Part shown: positions 1-9,759 of the stretch, in pieces
Layout of the letters: each line of letters starts with the position of its first letter
How positions within the stretch are numbered: position 1 is the first letter of the stretch
Origin: a virus
Lineage: Duplodnaviria > Heunggongvirae > Uroviricota > Caudoviricetes
Strand: one strand, 5' to 3'
IMG/VR virus record: IMGVR_UViG_3300020049_008481
DNA: 16,998 nucleotides
Notes under the pieces: generated by a model
What the model saw: the letters and a program-made list of their open reading frames with translations, nothing else
Told to the model about the DNA's origin: nothing
The model's database searches: none
Translations under genes and position numbers: made by a program

Positions 1-211
1 ACACACTAGGTTGGCAAAGAGTGAGACAGCCAACCAAGACGGGAAAGCCGAGCGACCCGGAAGCCACAAGGGCGACCGGGCCGACGACCGACACACTAGG
101 TTGGCAAAGAGTGAGACAGCCAACCAAGACGGGAAAGCCGAGCGACCCGGAAGCCACAAGGGCGACCGGGCCGACGACCGACACACTAGGTTGGCAAAGA
201 GTGAGACAGCC
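1..211. repeat. 90-bp exact tandem repeat (copies 1-90, 91-180, partial 181-211); the array may continue left of the window
   Basis: The unit beginning ACACACTAGGTTGGCAAAGAGTGAGACAGC recurs at 1, 91 and 181 with identical intervening sequence. Each unit contains a GGTTGGC/GCCAACC stem around a 13-nt loop. Confidence 0.97.
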
Positions 212-475
212 TACCGGGCGAGCAGTTCGGCCACCCGGTAGGAACCATCCCGGATGGAACCACGTCGCACCAGTGCCCCGTCCTTGCACAACCGGCCAAG
301 GGTAGCGACCGAACAGCCAAGGAATGCCATCGCATCGGACGCACTGCACCAATCAGCCGCGTCCATGCCATCCAGCCGGGATGAATCGGCTGTTGTGCCC
401 TTGTTCTTGGCTCGCTTCTGGGGCGTCGTGCCGTCCGCACATACGTCAAGTAACCGTCAATAGAGTCTCAACAGT

Positions 476-1990
476 ACGGCTTTGCTAAGGAGGCAGAGCC
501 TATCTGTGGACATTCTGTTGTCCAGATAGAACACGTTTCGCCAACGTGACTATTACTCGGCATCCTTGCGAGGATATCGAGACATTCCATTGTTAGGTTA
601 TTCTCCTTTGGAATGAGGCTCCTTGTCAGTAATATCGACAAGAGGTGAACCTAGTATCTCCGAAATAACAGGATAGGTTCGCTCCCCACGTGCGTTTAGA
701 GGTATTGTCCCTACACTCGCCATAGCGGCGTGACCTGGACTGCCACCACTCATAGGCCACATATCGCCAACGTGAGTAGGTGTCTAGTCAAATCAGTGTC
801 ACTTTAGGACATTACCCCCGTCCTAGTGGGGTTTGGTTGTCAGGTGAGATAGGCTGAAAGTTGCTTGTCTCACTCTTTGGCAACCTGTTGTGTCGGATCG
901 GTTCGGCTTTCGGTCGCGCTAATTCGGCATGCCCTAGGTTTAGGTAGCGTTGTCATAACGCCTAGGGGAAACTATCTGAATCAGCAAGTGAATCAGATAG
1001 ATCGCAGTAGGAAAGGGAGACGCACATACATAATATCCCTACTGCGTGCGTGCTAGTACGCTAAGACTAGATACAAGGGTGACATTCCCTATAGGTACAT
1101 CACGTTTCACCTATGACACAAATGACGTGAGAACGACACTACCCTAGCGCCCATGAATCGGTCGTATAGGCATCAGGTGTGGGCTGAAACCTAACGAAGA
1201 TTAGGCATGTAGTACCGGGTGATACCGGAATGCTGAAACACAATAGGTGAACGCTAGAATGTGCAGTCAAGACCGAGAAACCTTGGCTGTGCAGCGTGAG
1301 GAATAGTTTAGAAGAGCATTCCTCAGAACCTAAGGCGTGAGGGTATACCCTACCTAATCAGTAGGGTATTTGGCAACCCTTGCAATATAGGTGAGCGGTC
1401 TTTCCTATGGCGAAGATGGGATAGACATAACATAGCCTCTATAACTAAGACCTAGTGAAAGAGTCGATGCTCACATGCTACATGTGACTTCTAACTAGAC
1501 TTGGGGTATTCACAAGAACCCTGGGCCTAAACGTGAAGTGTGTGAGTAATGTTCGGGAACGAAGTCCCATAAGTAGAGGAAATCCAAGTTCGGGTAGACA
1601 TATGCCGGATGAGGATAATCGGATTAGGAATCTTCGGATACCTTCGCTGCACCGATCGGTAGGAATACCATACTGTTTCGGAATAATGTAGCAATCTGGT
1701 TACCCTTAGCAACAGAAGGCACAGTGGGCCGAACGAGGATTCACGGGGTTCTAGCGAATCTCTGCAACTAGCCTGGGGCAGCCAGCAACATACTGCCACG
1801 AAAGTTAGGCGTCTGGTCATATCGCTGCTATGACTACAGGTTGCATCATACCTGGGGTGAGAAATGATGCAATGCGCACTAGCATACGGCTTAGAGTTGG
1901 CGCAGTCATAATCTAAGCATGAGCAATAGGCTCCCTCTCATAGAAGCAACGGGGCCTGTGTCGGTCAGTTGAGCATACTGACAGAAGTAA
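476..1990 (+). ncRNA. Candidate large structured ncRNA (family not recognised; boundaries approximate)
   Basis: No ORF of 100 aa or more lies inside, and the short ORFs lack RBS and codon bias. About 20 hairpins were found by eye, e.g. 478-485/493-500, 532-537/543-548, 583-589/609-615, 647-653/674-680, 932-938/961-967, 972-979/993-1000, 1003-1011/1038-1046, 1297-1304/1318-1325, 1345-1353/1361-1369, 1471-1477/1481-1487, 1841-1849/1864-1872. The strand is inferred from G-U pairs and the flanking genes. Confidence 0.7.
861..920 (-). repeat. Diverged inverted copy of ~55 nt of the 90-bp repeat unit
   Basis: The reverse complement of 866-896 (CCGACACAACAGGTTGCCAAAGAGTGAGACA) matches the repeat (CCGACACACTAGGTTGGCAAAGAGTGAGACA) at 28 of 31 positions. 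Gapped similarity extends to about 920. Confidence 0.9.
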
Positions 1991-1997
1991 ATGCTCC

Positions 1998-2053
1998 GGT
2001 ATGTGGCAGAAGTTGGTGCCAGAGTTTCCGTTCGACCCGGAGGCATACCGCCA
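1998..2053 (+). ncRNA. tRNA-like element lacking an anticodon arm (56 nt, CCA encoded)
   Basis: Acceptor stem GGTATGT(1998-2004)/GCATACC(2043-2049), G discriminator and CCA (2051-2053). Canonical T-arm TTCCG-TTCGACC-CGGAG (2026-2042). Only one D-like hairpin, GGCA-GAAGTTGG-TGCC (2005-2020), lies in between. Confidence 0.8.
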
Positions 2054-2099
2054 TGCGTAGTAGATAGCTGCGCAGTGGCTAGCAGGAGCAAGTGCCCAA

Positions 2100-2624
2100 A
2101 TGAGCAAGAACATCACCTGGGTCGATTCCCCGACCCTCAAGCAGAACGTCCTCAACGGGGTCGAGGGAGCAGCCGACATGTGTCGGGATCGGCTCCTGAA
2201 CAACTCGATCCGGGCGTTCGCCGTGGACTACCTCGTCACGGCGATGGAGTCCGTGGGGGAGCCGTTCCGGCTCGGCAAGGCGAACGAGGCGAAGCTCAAG
2301 AGCTTCCGTGCCTCTGCAGCCAGCGCCCGTCCGGTCAAGTCCGCCGAAGAGAAGCAGGCCATCTCCGAGGCGCAGGACAAGCGTGCCGAGTCCGCCCTGT
2401 TCGGCACCTGGATGTATCGCCAGGACACCCCGATCGCCCGGTGGGAGGCGCTGGAGTTCTTCGGCGTCGAGGCCGCACGTGAGGACACCATCGTCAAGTA
2501 CGCCGCCCAGAAGGCGAAGTACCTGTCGGTCGAGGCCAACCAGAAGGCGTACAACGCCCGCAAGGAGGCCCGCACGGAGCTGATCGAGCAGTTCCGTGAC
2601 GAGTCCGCCGAGGCGGCTGCCTGA
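2100..2624 (+). CDS. Hypothetical protein, 174 aa, Ala/Lys/Glu-rich and probably helical
   Basis: AGGAG RBS upstream, very strong GC3 codon bias with no TTA/ATA/AGA codons, and a terminator hairpin downstream. Confidence 0.9.
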   Translation: MSKNITWVDSPTLKQNVLNGVEGAADMCRDRLLNNSIRAFAVDYLVTAMESVGEPFRLGKANEAKLKSFRASAASARPVKSAEEKQAISEAQDKRAESALFGTWMYRQDTPIARWEALEFFGVEAAREDTIVKYAAQKAKYLSVEANQKAYNARKEARTELIEQFRDESAEAAA

Positions 2625-2643
2625 TCCATCCGAAGCTGTCAGA

Positions 2644-2673
2644 CCTGGGGAGGGGAGCAATCCTCTCCCCAGG
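2644..2673 (+). terminator. GC-rich hairpin terminator (no U-tract)
   Basis: 13-bp stem CCTGGGGAGGGGA/TCCTCTCCCCAGG (one G-U pair) with a GCAA tetraloop, 20 nt after the stop of 2100-2624. Confidence 0.7.
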
Positions 2674-2677
2674 CAGG

Positions 2678-2705
2678 CTGACAACCGTCAGTGTCCAGCT
2701 ATAAC
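2678..2705 (+). promoter_or_regulatory. Possible sigma70-type promoter
   Basis: CTGACA (2678-2683), 16-nt spacer, TATAAC (2700-2705), directly after the terminator. The -10 overlaps a 16-bp inverted repeat. Confidence 0.35.
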
Positions 2706-3228
2706 AGCCCTAGTTACGCTTGCGATGGGTTTGAGCAGCGTAGTAAGTGGGAGTGGTGTCCCCACTAGGGCTGTTATAGGTGCATACCGGCATTGGTTGC
2801 ACTAGCGAAAGGGGAGTGATCCTAAATGGCCTAGTTTCTTCTTTCTCACCTAACATACGACATCCCTGCGGATCGCTAGTATCCAGCAGGTTCAACCTCG
2901 CTTGAGGCTTGCCGTTGTAACTCGTCCGAAAGGATAGGGCTGCAGGACACAAGTAGATTCCTGGCCTCCTGAGTAGGGAGTTGCATAAAGGCAAATGCGC
3001 CATAGTGGCAACCCTATGGGAATCAAAGTTGCATACGGGTTTCCTGCTTTGCCCAAATCTAAAGCAGGTGGTGGAAGCGGACTCTACACGAGTCAGCCCC
3101 AAAGGCGATCAAGAAATGCTATCTCCCCCCTGGAATAGCTGCCTTGTACTGATCTGGAAGCCGTGCACGGTAAAGGGGGCCTTTCTCTGGCAGCTTTGAG
3201 CGCCGATGATTTACCCAAACACCCAACA
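2699..3228 (+). ncRNA. Second candidate structured ncRNA (~530 nt; family not recognised)
   Basis: No credible CDS. Perfect 16-bp stem 2699-2714/2764-2779. Other stems: 2865-2869/2886-2890, TCC-GAAA-GGA at 2925-2934, 3000-3005/3014-3019, 3043-3050/3061-3068, 3080-3084/3090-3094, and long-range 3025-3032/3190-3197 and 3169-3174/3210-3215. Confidence 0.6.
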
Positions 3229-3241
3229 AGGAGCAAGTGCC

Positions 3242-3481
3242 ATGAATACCCTCGTCCCGTTCCTCGTCCAGACCGTCCACACCGAGAAGGGCAACACCCT
3301 CTCCGGTGAGACGGCGAAGCGCCAGGTGCCGTCCAGCCGTGTGGTCATGGCCACCAGCAAGAAGCTGGCCATCGACCTCGCCATCGAGGCGCATCGGGAG
3401 CAGTTCTTCCTCGCCCCGACCGTCTGCATCCTGTCCAACGGATGCTTCGCCAAGCCGAGCCGTGTCCCGGTTCCGGCCTGA
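3242..3481 (+). CDS. Hypothetical protein, 79 aa
   Basis: AAGGAG RBS before the ATG at 3242 and strong GC3 bias. The ORF track's upstream start at 3206 is unlikely. Confidence 0.85.
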   Translation: MNTLVPFLVQTVHTEKGNTLSGETAKRQVPSSRVVMATSKKLAIDLAIEAHREQFFLAPTVCILSNGCFAKPSRVPVPA

Positions 3482-3635
3482 CCGCAAGCTGCGGTTGGAA
3501 GCAGCACGCAACATCCGTAAGGCGACCGACCCAAACTTCGGCAAGCGTCGTCCGACTGCCTTGGATGTGAACAAGTCCAGGGCTTTCATGGACAAGAACG
3601 CCTGTCGAAGCCGATTCAGCAAGAACTGGGAGTAG
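3462..3635 (+). CDS. Small basic hypothetical protein, 57 aa (weak ArfA-like resemblance)
   Basis: GTG start overlapping the upstream gene. It fills the gap 3481-3640 and has phage-like codon use. The start position is uncertain. Confidence 0.55.
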   Translation: MSRFRPDRKLRLEAARNIRKATDPNFGKRRPTALDVNKSRAFMDKNACRSRFSKNWE

Positions 3636-5086: not shown

Positions 5087-5331
5087 TGGCAGCATGTCTG
5101 AGTGCCAGGGCGGTCACTCTTGCCCTACGTCACAAGTTCGAAGGTGCAGAAGAACGTACCTACACGGTCATCTGTCCGAGCGGTTGGTCCAAGTCAACTT
5201 TCCTCAAGTACGTGCGGAGATACCATCCACATGAGACTGCAAGGATCGTAGAATGGCCTCAGCCGAGCCAGTGGCTTGTGAACCCTGACGGGTACGAGAA
5301 CTACAGAACAGGAACAGGATGGACTGAATGA
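5086..5331 (+). CDS. Hypothetical protein, 81 aa (MAACLSARAV...)
   Basis: TGATG coupling at 5084-5088 and an ATGA overlap with the phosphoesterase. It forms the 3' part of the track's 194-aa ORF. Confidence 0.6.
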   Translation: MAACLSARAVTLALRHKFEGAEERTYTVICPSGWSKSTFLKYVRRYHPHETARIVEWPQPSQWLVNPDGYENYRTGTGWTE

Positions 5332-5897
5332 GCAACATCTTCTACACCTCGGATCTTCACTTCTCACACACCAACATCCTCACCTACTGCAATCGCCCTT
5401 GGGACAGCGTCCTCGAGATGAACGAGGGGCTGATTGACAACTGGAACAGCGTCGTTGGTGCAGATGACATCACCTACATCATCGGTGATGTGTGTATGGG
5501 CCGACGTGATGAGACTGTCCCGTTGGTGTCCCGGCTGAACGGACGCAAGATCCTGATCCCTGGGAACCACGATGACTGCCATCCCATGTACGCTTCCCGG
5601 AACAACTTTGTGAGGCGTTGTGTGTTGTACTCTGAGCACATGGAGATTACAGAAGTGCAGGGAGTTATTGACACGCCCCCTGTAGCTTCAGTATGTCACT
5701 TCCCTTTCGCTGGGTCAGGTGACCACACAGACGAGGAACGCTACACGGAATGGCGTCCAGTAGACCACGGCCAATGGCTGATCCACGGTCATATCCATGA
5801 CCTATGGAAGCAGAATGGCCGCATGATCAACGTAGGTGTGGACGTTTGGGATTACCGCCCTGTCCACACCGATCAGCTCTTGGAGTTGATGAGCTAG
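5328..5897 (+). CDS. Calcineurin-like metallophosphoesterase
   Basis: Motifs SDLHFSH, GDV, GNHD, CH and HGHIH appear in canonical order. Confidence 0.93.
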   Translation: MSNIFYTSDLHFSHTNILTYCNRPWDSVLEMNEGLIDNWNSVVGADDITYIIGDVCMGRRDETVPLVSRLNGRKILIPGNHDDCHPMYASRNNFVRRCVLYSEHMEITEVQGVIDTPPVASVCHFPFAGSGDHTDEERYTEWRPVDHGQWLIHGHIHDLWKQNGRMINVGVDVWDYRPVHTDQLLELMS

Positions 5898-5909
5898 AAA
5901 GGCAACAAC

Positions 5910-6632
5910 ATGACAACCCAGTTCTTTGAAGTTGGTGGATGTGTCAGGGATTCCCTCCTTGGCCTGGAATCCAACGATGTAGATTTCACCGTTGTTGGCC
6001 CTGCCAGCTTCGATGATTTCCATGCAGAACTCACAGGTATGGGATTTCAAATCTTCGAGTCCCGTCCCGAGTTCTTCACAATCAGGGCCAAGGTTCCTGA
6101 CTCGATGCCTGAACTTCGTGCCAGGACTCGGGTTGCTGACTTCGTACTGGCCCGTAGGGACGGACCTTCCTCGGACGGTAGACGGCCTGACTTCACCGTT
6201 CCAGGGAATCTGTTCGATGACCTAGACAGGCGTGACTTCACGGTCAACGCTATGGCTCGTGGACTTGACGGTGTTCTCCATGACCCCTTCAATGGGCAAG
6301 AGGACCTAGCGAACAGGACTCTACGGTTCGTTGGTGTTGCTGCTGTGAGGATCGAAGAAGATGGCTTGCGTGTCCTTCGTGGGCTGCGGTTCATGGTCAC
6401 GAAGAGCCTGACGCCCACTCCTGAGACATTTCGCGACTTGCAGTCGGTGTTTGCAGCCGAAATGCTTGGCTGTGTGTCCAAGGAGCGTAGACGTGAGGAA
6501 CTGAACAAGATGTTGGCGTTCGATACGATGACATCTTTCGAGCTTCTTGCGAGCCTGCCCACTATCACTGTCGAGGCTATCCTTGCAGGTGGGCTTCGAC
6601 TCAAGGCTACGATGGAAGAAGGTTCGTTCTAA
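5910..6632 (+). CDS. cca: tRNA nucleotidyltransferase (class II, CCA-adding/poly(A) polymerase family), compact with no HD domain
   Basis: VGGCVRDSLLG..DVDF, DLDRRDFTVNAMA, DPFNGQEDL, EDGLRVLRGLRF, SKER..EEL. Confidence 0.92.
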   Translation: MTTQFFEVGGCVRDSLLGLESNDVDFTVVGPASFDDFHAELTGMGFQIFESRPEFFTIRAKVPDSMPELRARTRVADFVLARRDGPSSDGRRPDFTVPGNLFDDLDRRDFTVNAMARGLDGVLHDPFNGQEDLANRTLRFVGVAAVRIEEDGLRVLRGLRFMVTKSLTPTPETFRDLQSVFAAEMLGCVSKERRREELNKMLAFDTMTSFELLASLPTITVEAILAGGLRLKATMEEGSF

Positions 6633-7003
6633 TGAGTCAAGCTGGTTACAAGTCTTGTGGGGGATGCGGTCGAATGTTCAAGATCGCATCCCCCATCGAG
6701 ATGACAGTTCTCGCCTCCCATGAATGTGAATGGGATGATGAGAAGTTCAACGAATACGAGAAGCTGCTGACAGAAATGCCTGGGACGCCCCTCACATTCC
6801 TCCAGTTCAAGCAAGCCATAGCTTCCAGGCCACGACCTGACGGTCAGCGTGAAGGTCAATGGGTGATGAACTCGCTATGTGATGTTCGTCCAGACCTTTA
6901 CAGGAGGGTCACTGGTGCTGTCATTGACCCGTTCCATGTGGATCACAAACTGTGGCAGTTCTGGGCGTGGCTCGAAAGTCATTGGGAGGAAGGATGTTCC
7001 TGA
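6632..7003 (+). CDS. Hypothetical protein, 123 aa, with an N-terminal CxxC...HxC
   Basis: TAATG coupling and a coherent ORF. Confidence 0.8.
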   Translation: MSQAGYKSCGGCGRMFKIASPIEMTVLASHECEWDDEKFNEYEKLLTEMPGTPLTFLQFKQAIASRPRPDGQREGQWVMNSLCDVRPDLYRRVTGAVIDPFHVDHKLWQFWAWLESHWEEGCS

Positions 7004-8973: not shown

Positions 8974-9315
8974 ATGCCTACTGCAACTGGTATTGAAGTC
9001 ATCGCCATCAACGGAGTTGACTATGTTCGTGCCGACTCTATCCCCACGGTTGTCCCACCCGATTCGTCCATTCGCATCGTTGTGCTACAGCGTGGATGGG
9101 TTGCTGTTGGTTACTACACCGAGGACGGGGATCGAGTTCTGCTCGATAACGCATCAGTAATCCGCCGATGGGGCACTACGAAGGGGCTTGGTGAACTGGT
9201 CAACGGTCCAACCAGCAGGACCATACTGGAACCCGCTGGCCATATTGAAGCACCCAGTCTTGGGGTTGTATTGACGATTTCTGTTGATGACTCCAAGTGG
9301 ATTGGTCATCTGTGA
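8974..9315 (+). CDS. DUF6948-like phage protein, 113 aa
   Basis: AGGAG RBS. The pattern IVV..RGWV.VG......V.L.NA..IRRWG...GLGEL..GP resembles the DUF6948-type family, which I recall occurring next to Gly/Tyr-rich repeat genes (not verified by search). Confidence 0.65.
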   Translation: MPTATGIEVIAINGVDYVRADSIPTVVPPDSSIRIVVLQRGWVAVGYYTEDGDRVLLDNASVIRRWGTTKGLGELVNGPTSRTILEPAGHIEAPSLGVVLTISVDDSKWIGHL

Positions 9316-9593
9316 TCGGCCTGATAGGGTCGTTGGGAGAAGATGCCCAAGTTCTAATCGGCTACGGCAACGGCAACGGCAACGGCTACGGCTACGGCGA
9401 CGGCTACGGCTACGGCGACGGCAACGGCTACGGCTACGGCGACGGCAACGGCAACGGCAACGGCTACGGCGACGGCGACGGCGACGGCAACGGCAACGGC
9501 AACGGCTACGGCTACGGCAACGGCAACGGCGACGGCGACGGCGACGGCTACGGCAACGGCTACGGCGACGGCAACGGCAACGGCAACGGCTAG
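9312..9593 (+). CDS. Glycine-rich (G-Y/N/D)38 repeat protein, ~93 aa
   Basis: GTGA overlap with the upstream stop and 38 consecutive GGC-NAC hexamers. Confidence 0.75.
   Translation: MIGLIGSLGEDAQVLIGYGNGNGNGYGYGDGYGYGDGNGYGYGDGNGNGNGYGDGDGDGNGNGNGYGYGNGNGDGDGDGYGNGYGDGNGNGNG
9360..9590 (+). repeat. Hexamer tandem repeat GGC(T/A/G)AC x38
   Basis: Read directly from the sequence; only one position per unit varies. Confidence 0.97.
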
Positions 9594-9759
9594 GATGCCT
9601 CTCCTACAAGCGACGACTCCACCTAATACCCCAACATCTACTCTAACCTCGCCCGATGTAGATGAAATCCACATCGTCTTTACCTCCACCTTTCTACAGA
9701 AACGGTGCTGGAGTTCGTGCCATCCGTCTAGAAGAAGATGAGGAAATAGATATCATCTA

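Follow-up and report, generated by a model that had tools for sequence, protein, structure and literature searches.

A gene-free chain of local hairpins at the start of a contig from a putative actinobacterial phage

A stretch of viral DNA from IMG/VR (record IMGVR_UViG_3300020049_008481; Duplodnaviria, Heunggongvirae, Uroviricota, Caudoviricetes) was analysed computationally over its full 16,998 nucleotides (nt), referred to here as the window. The subject was positions 476-1990, hereafter the region, which an earlier note on this DNA had put forward as a candidate giant phage non-coding RNA. The region was found to be a beads-on-a-string arrangement of independent local stem-loops. It combines an absence of genes, an excess of local structure, no long-range structure, a bias toward the + strand and no known RNA family, and a 45-nt element occurs in four copies, one in the region and three within a tandem array at the start of the window. 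The anomaly is real, but the label of a giant non-coding RNA is not earned. Judged from the sequence, the stretch is tentatively read as a + strand, modular, hairpin-rich early leader or as a set of small stable RNAs.

Gene content and local structure of the gap

The earlier note had described the region as lacking a credible coding sequence, and this was borne out. The true gene-free gap was in fact wider, covering 367-2099 (1.73 kb) between divergently oriented genes, because it is flanked by a - strand open reading frame (ORF) at 211-366 and a + strand gene at 2100-2624. The longest ORF starting with ATG, GTG or TTG in 476-1990 encoded 97 amino acids (aa) on the - strand, and about one of this kind is expected by chance in 1.5 kb at 48% GC. 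Its product had no homologue, not even a self match, among 5.8 billion proteins. Only one ORF of at least 25 aa was preceded by a 5-nt match to a ribosome-binding site (40 aa, 468-590, - strand), and the spacing was long. Moreover, no frame of the region showed codon-position GC periodicity, unlike gene 2100-2624, and the ten longest stop-to-stop frames gave nothing meaningful in Pfam or PHROGs. As judged from these sequence comparisons, no decayed gene or pseudogene remnant is detectable in the gap. The GC content falls from 0.63 to about 0.48 at about position 470; much of the window also lies at 45-55% GC, so that low GC alone is not diagnostic.

The density of hairpins claimed earlier, a stem every 50-70 nt or so, proved to be real. 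With pairs limited to 70 nt, the + strand of 440-2100 formed 34 hairpins of at least 5 base pairs (bp), on average one every 49 nt or so. There were 19 perfect 7-mer inverted repeats within 40 nt, compared with 2.9 ± 2.0 in 200 shuffles, none of which reached 19. The density of such perfect local repeats was about 6 per 500 nt, about 3.5-fold that of the rest of the window (about 1.7). The comparison of minimum free energy with dinucleotide shuffles, proposed in the earlier note as a check, gave z-scores of -9.4 for 476-1475 and -5.1 for 991-1990, clearly better than the controls. In 200-nt windows, the mean z was -2.34 in the region and -0.72 in 136 windows elsewhere (Mann-Whitney p 1e-4). 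The structure was uneven, being strong over 401-1000 and 1201-1500 and weak over 1501-2000, and three blocks were distinguished, as follows.

476-1000, + strand: Block A, some 12 independent hairpins and the strongest structure of the three; local-fold z -6.3 on the + strand and -3.5 on the - strand, asymmetry -2.8
478-500 (AAGGAGG in the loop), 500-529, 556-581, 814-832, 843-874, 890-930, 932-967 and 972-1000, + strand: hairpins of Block A
1001-1530, + strand: Block B, a second strong run of local hairpins; local-fold z over 981-1485 of -4.3 on the + strand and -2.3 on the - strand
1003-1046, 1210-1235, 1261-1292, 1298-1324, 1345-1369 (nested in 1328-1392), 1398-1426, 1472-1486 and 1496-1529, + strand: hairpins of Block B
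1531-1990, + strand: Block C, gene-free and weakly structured, with few perfect stems, for example 1841-1872 (9 bp) and 1926-1959

Within Block A, the segment 843-931 folded with a z of -4.9, and within Block B the segment 1255-1400 reached -4.95. In Block C, the z of 200-nt windows ranged from +0.1 to -1.8, and the local-fold z of 1486-1990 was -2.6.

The excess was confined to short distances. When pairs were allowed to span no more than 50 nt, the fold z was already -9.2. Raising this limit to 150 nt and then lifting it altogether brought gains of 54 and 37 kcal/mol, compared with 70 and 51 kcal/mol in shuffles; the long-span gain was thus below that of shuffled sequence (z +1.95 and +2.44). 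All of the excess stability therefore comes from pairs of at most 50 nt, which counts against one giant folded RNA. Perfect long-range 9-mers were 5 in number against 3.6 ± 2.4 expected, and 31% of shuffles reached 5. Accordingly, the 9-bp pairing between 497-505 and 847-855, which the earlier note had singled out, does exist, but such pairings occur at the chance level. The nested multi-branch element that had been described at 932-967 around 947-961 turned out to be a single extended hairpin with no junction. No multi-stem junctions of the sort found in ornate RNAs were apparent in the hairpin list, and long-range pairing was, if anything, poorer than random. A caution follows for similar cases: a very negative folding z in a gene-free phage region can arise wholly from short local hairpins, and does not by itself indicate a giant folded RNA.

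Other signals in the gap were few. Hairpin 814-832 was the sole one with a T-rich tail, and it corresponds to a terminator-like site at 816-831. An array of intrinsic terminators was not found, since this was the one + strand site in the region, and 1-3000 held 2 sites compared with 2.4 expected. DnaA-box-like sites were not enriched: TTGTCCACA with at most one mismatch occurred four times in the window against 5.05 expected, and twice in the region. Two sites matching a DnaA box at 8 of 9 positions face each other at 505-526. Repeat families or iterons were absent from the gap apart from the 45-nt element and a 16-nt motif. The latter (core TCGCCAACGTGA) occurs twice on the + strand, at 537-552 and 763-778, 226 nt apart, where 0.1 would be expected by chance. 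Only its first copy forms a hairpin, so the motif may be a sequence-specific site and not a structure. A search for antisense complementarity between the region and the rest of the window gave nothing beyond chance matches of 12-13 nt. A protein-sponge design was also considered and was rejected, as no shared loop motif was seen by eye in the hairpin list.

The perfect AAGGAGG at 487-493 lies within the loop of the first hairpin (478-500). Twelve nt after it, a GTG opens a mini-frame of seven codons which ends with the TAG at 527-529. This combination could be a leader peptide, a ribosome-loading site, or chance.

Strand preference and relatives

The structure leaned toward the + strand. The fold z of the region was -7.6 on the + strand and -4.5 on the - strand, and the energy difference between strands was -63.9 kcal/mol, compared with -29.4 ± 11.9 kcal/mol in shuffles (asymmetry z -2.9). 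By thirds, the asymmetry z was -2.8, -2.0 and -1.0, all leaning the same way. Several of the best stems collapse on the complement because they depend on G-U pairs. Hairpin 1261-1292 changed from -13.0 kcal/mol on the + strand to -1.3 on the - strand, and hairpin 478-500 from -13.1 to -7.4 kcal/mol. The G/U-rich hairpin 890-930, with five reiterated UCGG motifs and 17 bp of which seven are G-U, forms only on the + strand (-17.4 compared with -0.5 kcal/mol). The evidence for a + strand lean is moderate and not decisive.

The known RNA families gave no match. With cmscan and Rfam 15, nothing was found in 476-1990 at gathering scores (whole window) or at E<=10 (positions 1-3500). At the sensitivity of the models, the region is therefore not GOLLD, ROOL, OLE, HEARO, a group I or II intron, a transfer RNA (tRNA)-like structure, a transfer-messenger RNA (tmRNA) or a CRISPR repeat. 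The impression in the earlier note that no hallmark of GOLLD, ROOL, HEARO or OLE was present agreed with this result. Relatives of the region were not found in phage records, plasmids, IMG/VR, JGI metagenomes or GTDB genomes by blastn, megablast and exact-pattern scans, nor were any found by IMG/VR scans anchored on the proteins of the two nearest usable genes.

Two public contigs matched parts of the region at 97-99% identity. A 230-nt contig from wastewater (X1) corresponds to 1439-1668 apart from 3 differences. The second contig (X2), 219 nt long and from a different study, matches 1255-1411 with 4 differences (97.5% identity); its 60 letters before position 1255 are unlike the window at that place and match nothing anywhere in it. 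Judging by X2, recombination may have joined different DNA at 1254/1255, a point within the putative giant RNA. Mosaic joints in phages usually lie at module boundaries, and the break in homology at 1255 thus points to modules. One difference in X2, A1347G in hairpin 1345-1369, is the sole difference within a stem; it turns an A-U pair into a G-U pair, which is paired only on the + strand, and it is a single observation. Other pieces of X2 resembling 2254-2291 and 5928-5967 were disregarded, being short, less than 90% alike and unlike in their flanks. Two IMG/VR contigs, L001 (2105-2123) and L002 (6263-6285), were also set aside, as they share just a terminator hairpin of 19-23 nt. These hairpins carry the same 18-nt core as the window hairpin 1349-1366, and without flanking similarity the match is a chance or convergent one.

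The idea of a new class of giant non-coding RNA, or of several RNAs in tandem, can thus be kept in part. The non-coding nature, the excess structure, the + strand lean and the lack of a known family were all found, whereas the giant fold was not: the excess is purely short-range, the last 450 nt are barely structured, and the homology to X2 breaks at 1255.

The region can be compared with several described systems. With GOLLD (RF01998), ROOL (RF03087), OLE (RF01071) and HEARO (RF02033), it has in common that it is a large, gene-free, structured candidate, and with GOLLD and ROOL also the phage setting with tRNA genes nearby. It differs from all four in giving no covariance-model match, in showing no excess of long-range pairing or junctions, and in having no homologues found.

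The closest documented precedent comes from the Cluster A mycobacteriophages L5, D29 and StarStuff, in which an ORF-free stretch of about 500 bp lies at the right genome end, from the early promoter Pleft to gene 89, the first gene there (PMC5712189). It yields a stable non-coding RNA that is the most abundant transcript, is toxic, and has a function left unexplained (PMC5712189). This RNA has no canonical stem-loop terminator, and a dense hairpin chain was not described for it (PMC5712189). The likeness lies in an actinobacterial phage, in the lack of a meaningful ORF, in a position by the genome end or contig start, and in a place upstream of the first gene of a unit, beside a regulatory zone, which in the window is presumed. 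However, the window gap is about three times longer and is defined by its dense hairpin chain. Furthermore, transcription, abundance and stability were shown in L5 and D29, whereas the window region is known from sequence alone. A blastn search with 11-base words gave no match at E<=5 in 50,697 phage records, which should include L5 and D29.

The left terminal repeat of phage T5 contains a large untranslated region rich in repeats and palindromes, the injection stop signal region (bioRxiv 10.1101/866236). The two are alike in a kilobase-scale untranslated stretch near an end, in inverted repeats or palindromes, and in a large phage with tRNA genes. T5 carries direct repeats in a set order and eight DnaA boxes that are conserved as a set, whereas the window gap has almost no direct repeats and its DnaA-like boxes are about as frequent as chance predicts. 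The stems of the window instead favour one strand through G-U pairs.

Repeats and neighbouring genes

The remaining features of the gap and its surroundings are given below.

1-215, no strand assigned: 2.4 tandem copies of a 90-bp unit (Tandem Repeats Finder, 99% matches)
211-366, - strand: 51-aa ORF bordering the gap on the left, its product similar to a small HTH_17 (excisionase/MerR-like) DNA-binding protein
367-475, no strand assigned: GC-rich spacer between the leftward ORF and the lower-GC block, presumed divergent promoter zone
855-899, + strand: fourth copy of the 45-nt element (covariance model, E 8e-15)
1998-2053, + strand: possible tRNA-like mini-helix at the 3' edge of the gap, with an acceptor-like stem, a T-arm-like hairpin, loop UUCGACC and then GCCA
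2100-2624, + strand: first convincing rightward gene, encoding an orphan helical protein of 174 aa, with AGGAG 8 nt upstream
2644-2673, + strand: GC-rich hairpin of 13 bp directly after the orphan gene, a likely terminator without a U-tail

Each 90-bp unit opens with the 45-nt element, in which a 7-bp stem carries an invariant 13-nt loop and is joined to a conserved tail. With a covariance model, the element was found on the - strand at 86-130, 176-220 and 1-40 (E 3e-16 to 3e-19), in addition to the + strand copy within the region. The loop is identical in four of four copies. The stem of the copy at 855-899 differs by one G-C to C-G swap and one C-G to U-G change, that is, one compensatory pair and one wobble. 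No further copies occurred in the window, and a 10-nt match to the tail at 1957-1966 is about what chance would give. Transcripts leaving the 367-475 zone either way would carry the element in one and the same sense. This recalls nutL and nutR of phage lambda, where a hairpin with an invariant loop likewise stands in the same RNA sense on both divergent sides of a regulatory zone, and the loop of the 45-nt element holds CUCUUU, reminiscent of boxA. However, the loop is 13 nt long, whereas boxB has a 5-nt GNRA-like fold, three of the copies here are in tandem and beyond the 3' end of the leftward gene, and lambda has a cognate antiterminator whereas no N-like protein was identified here. The resemblance is geometric only and is offered as an idea.

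The possible mini-helix at 1998-2053 had a z of only -0.97, no tRNA or tmRNA model matched it at E<=10, and ARAGORN made no call; its T-loop-like sequence and CCA were recognised by eye only. In the presumed promoter zone, the sequence offers a -10 candidate of the TANNNT type, TAGAGT at 461-466, some 12 nt ahead of the first hairpin; a sigma-70 scan did not pick it.

The 51-aa ORF at 211-366 matched Pfam PF12728 (E 4.8e-5, 24 bits), slightly below the 27-bit cut-off, and its stop codon overlaps the third 90-bp repeat. On the other side of the gap, gene 2100-2624 has a GC content at third codon positions (GC3) of about 0.9 in its own frame. The sole match of its protein among 5.8 billion proteins was itself, on a contig of 130,702 bp that begins with the window; comparisons with phage, IMG/VR and Pfam data gave nothing, and tblastn was also empty. 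Structural look-alikes of this protein in the ESM Atlas (best score 0.86, template-modelling value <0.4) were rejected as uninformative. The segment 2620-2700, which includes the hairpin after the gene, folded at -39.8 kcal/mol (z -3.5). All genes downstream of the gap lie on the + strand.

The statement in the earlier note that the genome is otherwise tightly packed needs a qualifier, as 2625-3205 is likewise gene-free. This second stretch, some 0.58 kb long, comes after the terminator-like hairpin behind the orphan gene, and together the two gaps leave about 2.3 kb of the first 3.3 kb non-coding. Unlike 476-1530, it was not significantly structured (z of 200-nt windows over 2701-3200, -0.8 to -1.6). 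An identical 13-nt string stands at 2084-2096 and 3229-3241, right before the start codons of two successive small genes, and may be a shared translation-initiation or regulatory leader.

The window contains four tRNA genes (cmscan at Rfam gathering scores; ARAGORN) and encodes a metallophosphoesterase, a CCA-adding enzyme, an Rnl1-type RNA ligase and a phosphatase. The closest protein relatives of its genes were in Arthrobacter, Streptomyces and Microbacterium phages, and the best matches of the CCA-adding enzyme were in Synechococcus phages, all at only 35-54% identity. This gene content points to a large actinobacterial phage. Compared with the 50,697 phage records, the window DNA showed nothing similar except one tRNA and two short coding patches. 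The phage is effectively a singleton, an orphan actinobacterial phage of about 131 kb. Elsewhere in the window, the hexamer CGGCAA is repeated in about 38.7 tandem copies (91% matches) at 9359-9590, within the overlapping frames 9284-9646 and 9297-9593. The array would encode a long dipeptide repeat, Arg-Gln in one frame and Gly-Asn in the other.

Competing readings and their meaning

In the reading that we tentatively prefer, the gap 367-2099 would be the untranslated head of a rightward early transcription unit near one end of the phage. Transcription of the + strand would begin at a promoter within 367-475, a zone common to it and the leftward helix-turn-helix (HTH) gene, and the product would be a long leader folding into about 30 independent short stem-loops, possibly cut into several small stable RNAs. 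The hairpins would act locally, by shielding the RNA from host ribonucleases so that it accumulates, and by pausing or gating RNA polymerase ahead of the first gene at 2100. The 45-nt element would be one discrete signal in this RNA (855-899 on the + strand; three copies at 1-220 on the - strand), and the hairpin at 2644-2673 would end the putative unit of leader plus gene. Transcription, the promoter, the stability of the RNA and any role in antitermination or processing are what we infer here.

Several results weigh against this reading. A coding control, 5300-6814, had a fold z of -5.6 compared with -7.6 for the region in the same test, while three other controls lay between -0.7 and -3.1; the region thus stands at the extreme of the window, but does not form a category apart. 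The asymmetry between strands is modest, and the same control behaved similarly (asymmetry z -2.4). In a strand-neutral count, G-U outnumbered A-C mismatches in gapless stems by only 7 to 3 (p 0.19). Folding with Watson-Crick pairs only was significant too (z -4.0, -3.5 and -2.1 by thirds), which leaves room for palindromes acting at the DNA level. By eye, the hairpin loops have no motif in common. No homologue of the region was found in any collection searched, and the covariation in the 45-nt element is a single event that 137 of 500 shuffles equal, which makes it suggestive only. A search of sequencing runs found no RNA run carrying the stretch, and the sigma-70 scan gave 3 sites compared with 1.5 expected, none of them a convincing promoter.

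The control 5300-6814 is a coding segment for the phosphoesterase and the CCA-adding enzyme. Its strongest windows lie near gene junctions, at about 5701 and 6501-6601.

Two readings at odds with an RNA were each given a low probability. The stretch could be a DNA-level element of a putative genome end, serving as an origin, in packaging or end recognition, or in ejection control, with the hairpins as protein-bound palindromes or cruciforms, as in the untranslated region of the T5 left terminal repeat. The 90-bp tandem array at the window start would fit this, as would the inverted copy of the 45-nt element about 650-860 bp further in (855-899), the adjoining small HTH ORF, the eleven stems that are perfect Watson-Crick repeats of 7-9 bp, together with the significance of Watson-Crick-only folding, the facing DnaA-box-like sites at 505-526, and a sign change of the GC skew near 600-750. 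However, DnaA-box-like sites were no more frequent than expected (4 compared with 5), the region holds no iterons except the one element, and several of the strongest stems need G-U pairs and are lost on the other strand (asymmetry z -2.9). In addition, the GC content of about 48% is close to that of much of the window, no distinct AT-rich unwinding zone is seen, and position 1 of the window as a physical genome end is an assumption. Equally unlikely in our view is a non-functional spacer or long-decayed DNA, in which hairpins arose by mutation (template switching, quasi-palindromes) and were tolerated. In favour of this, the hairpins all differ and fall into no family by loop motif or otherwise, long-range architecture is lacking, no homologue was found in the collections searched, and the structure fades over 1530-1990. 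The genes next to the gap are orphans, as would fit an accessory end that evolves fast. Nevertheless, 1.7 kb of dead weight is rare in phage genomes, both the z of -9 and the six-fold surplus of perfect local repeats are considerable, and no protein remnant was detectable. Parts of the region are also 97-99% identical in two unrelated public samples, although this speaks of recency and not of selection.

A single giant structured RNA of about 1-1.5 kb with a global fold, a new class like GOLLD, ROOL or OLE, is the least supported of the RNA readings and has only a slim chance of being right. GOLLD and ROOL are often found in phages with tRNA genes and RNA-repair enzymes, and this phage has both; moreover, the stretch is gene-free, has a strong excess of folding energy, favours the + strand, and carries a possible tRNA-like module at its 3' edge. 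However, that module is not significant (z -0.97, no model match), no Rfam family matched at E<=10, all the excess energy is short-range, long-range pairing is below that of shuffles, and the long-range helix once cited for it is at the chance level. The 3' third is barely structured, no sign of multi-stem junctions was seen, and the homology break at 1255 falls within the supposed molecule. It is hardly probable that the gap consists of several unannotated micro-ORFs with the hairpins as intergenic terminators or regulators. The perfect AAGGAGG 12 nt before the GTG of the 7-codon frame and the 40-aa - strand ORF at 468-590 with AAGGAG upstream would agree with it, but the latter is the only ORF of at least 25 aa with a ribosome-binding site, its spacing is long, no codon-position GC periodicity like that of 2100-2624 was present, and no family matched.

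The early leader or set of small stable RNAs on the + strand thus remains our preferred reading. A bolder form of it, which we regard as quite a long shot, is that at least about 476-1530, the well-folded part, would be a gene or a tandem series of genes for a new, lineage-restricted class of highly stable phage RNA, built as a hairpin chain and made at the very outset of infection. Such an RNA would be freed from the mRNA downstream at the possible tRNA-like module (1998-2053) and act in trans, for example as a sink for a host ribonuclease or defence factor, and the 45-nt element would be a new control signal at the RNA level, common to the two divergent early transcripts.

Should the stretch be transcribed and its RNA be stable, it would exceed in length every non-coding leader or RNA array so far described at the genome end of an actinobacteriophage. 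It would also be a second case, unrelated in sequence, beside the Pleft RNA, which would hint that these phages have turned to early non-coding RNA more than once.

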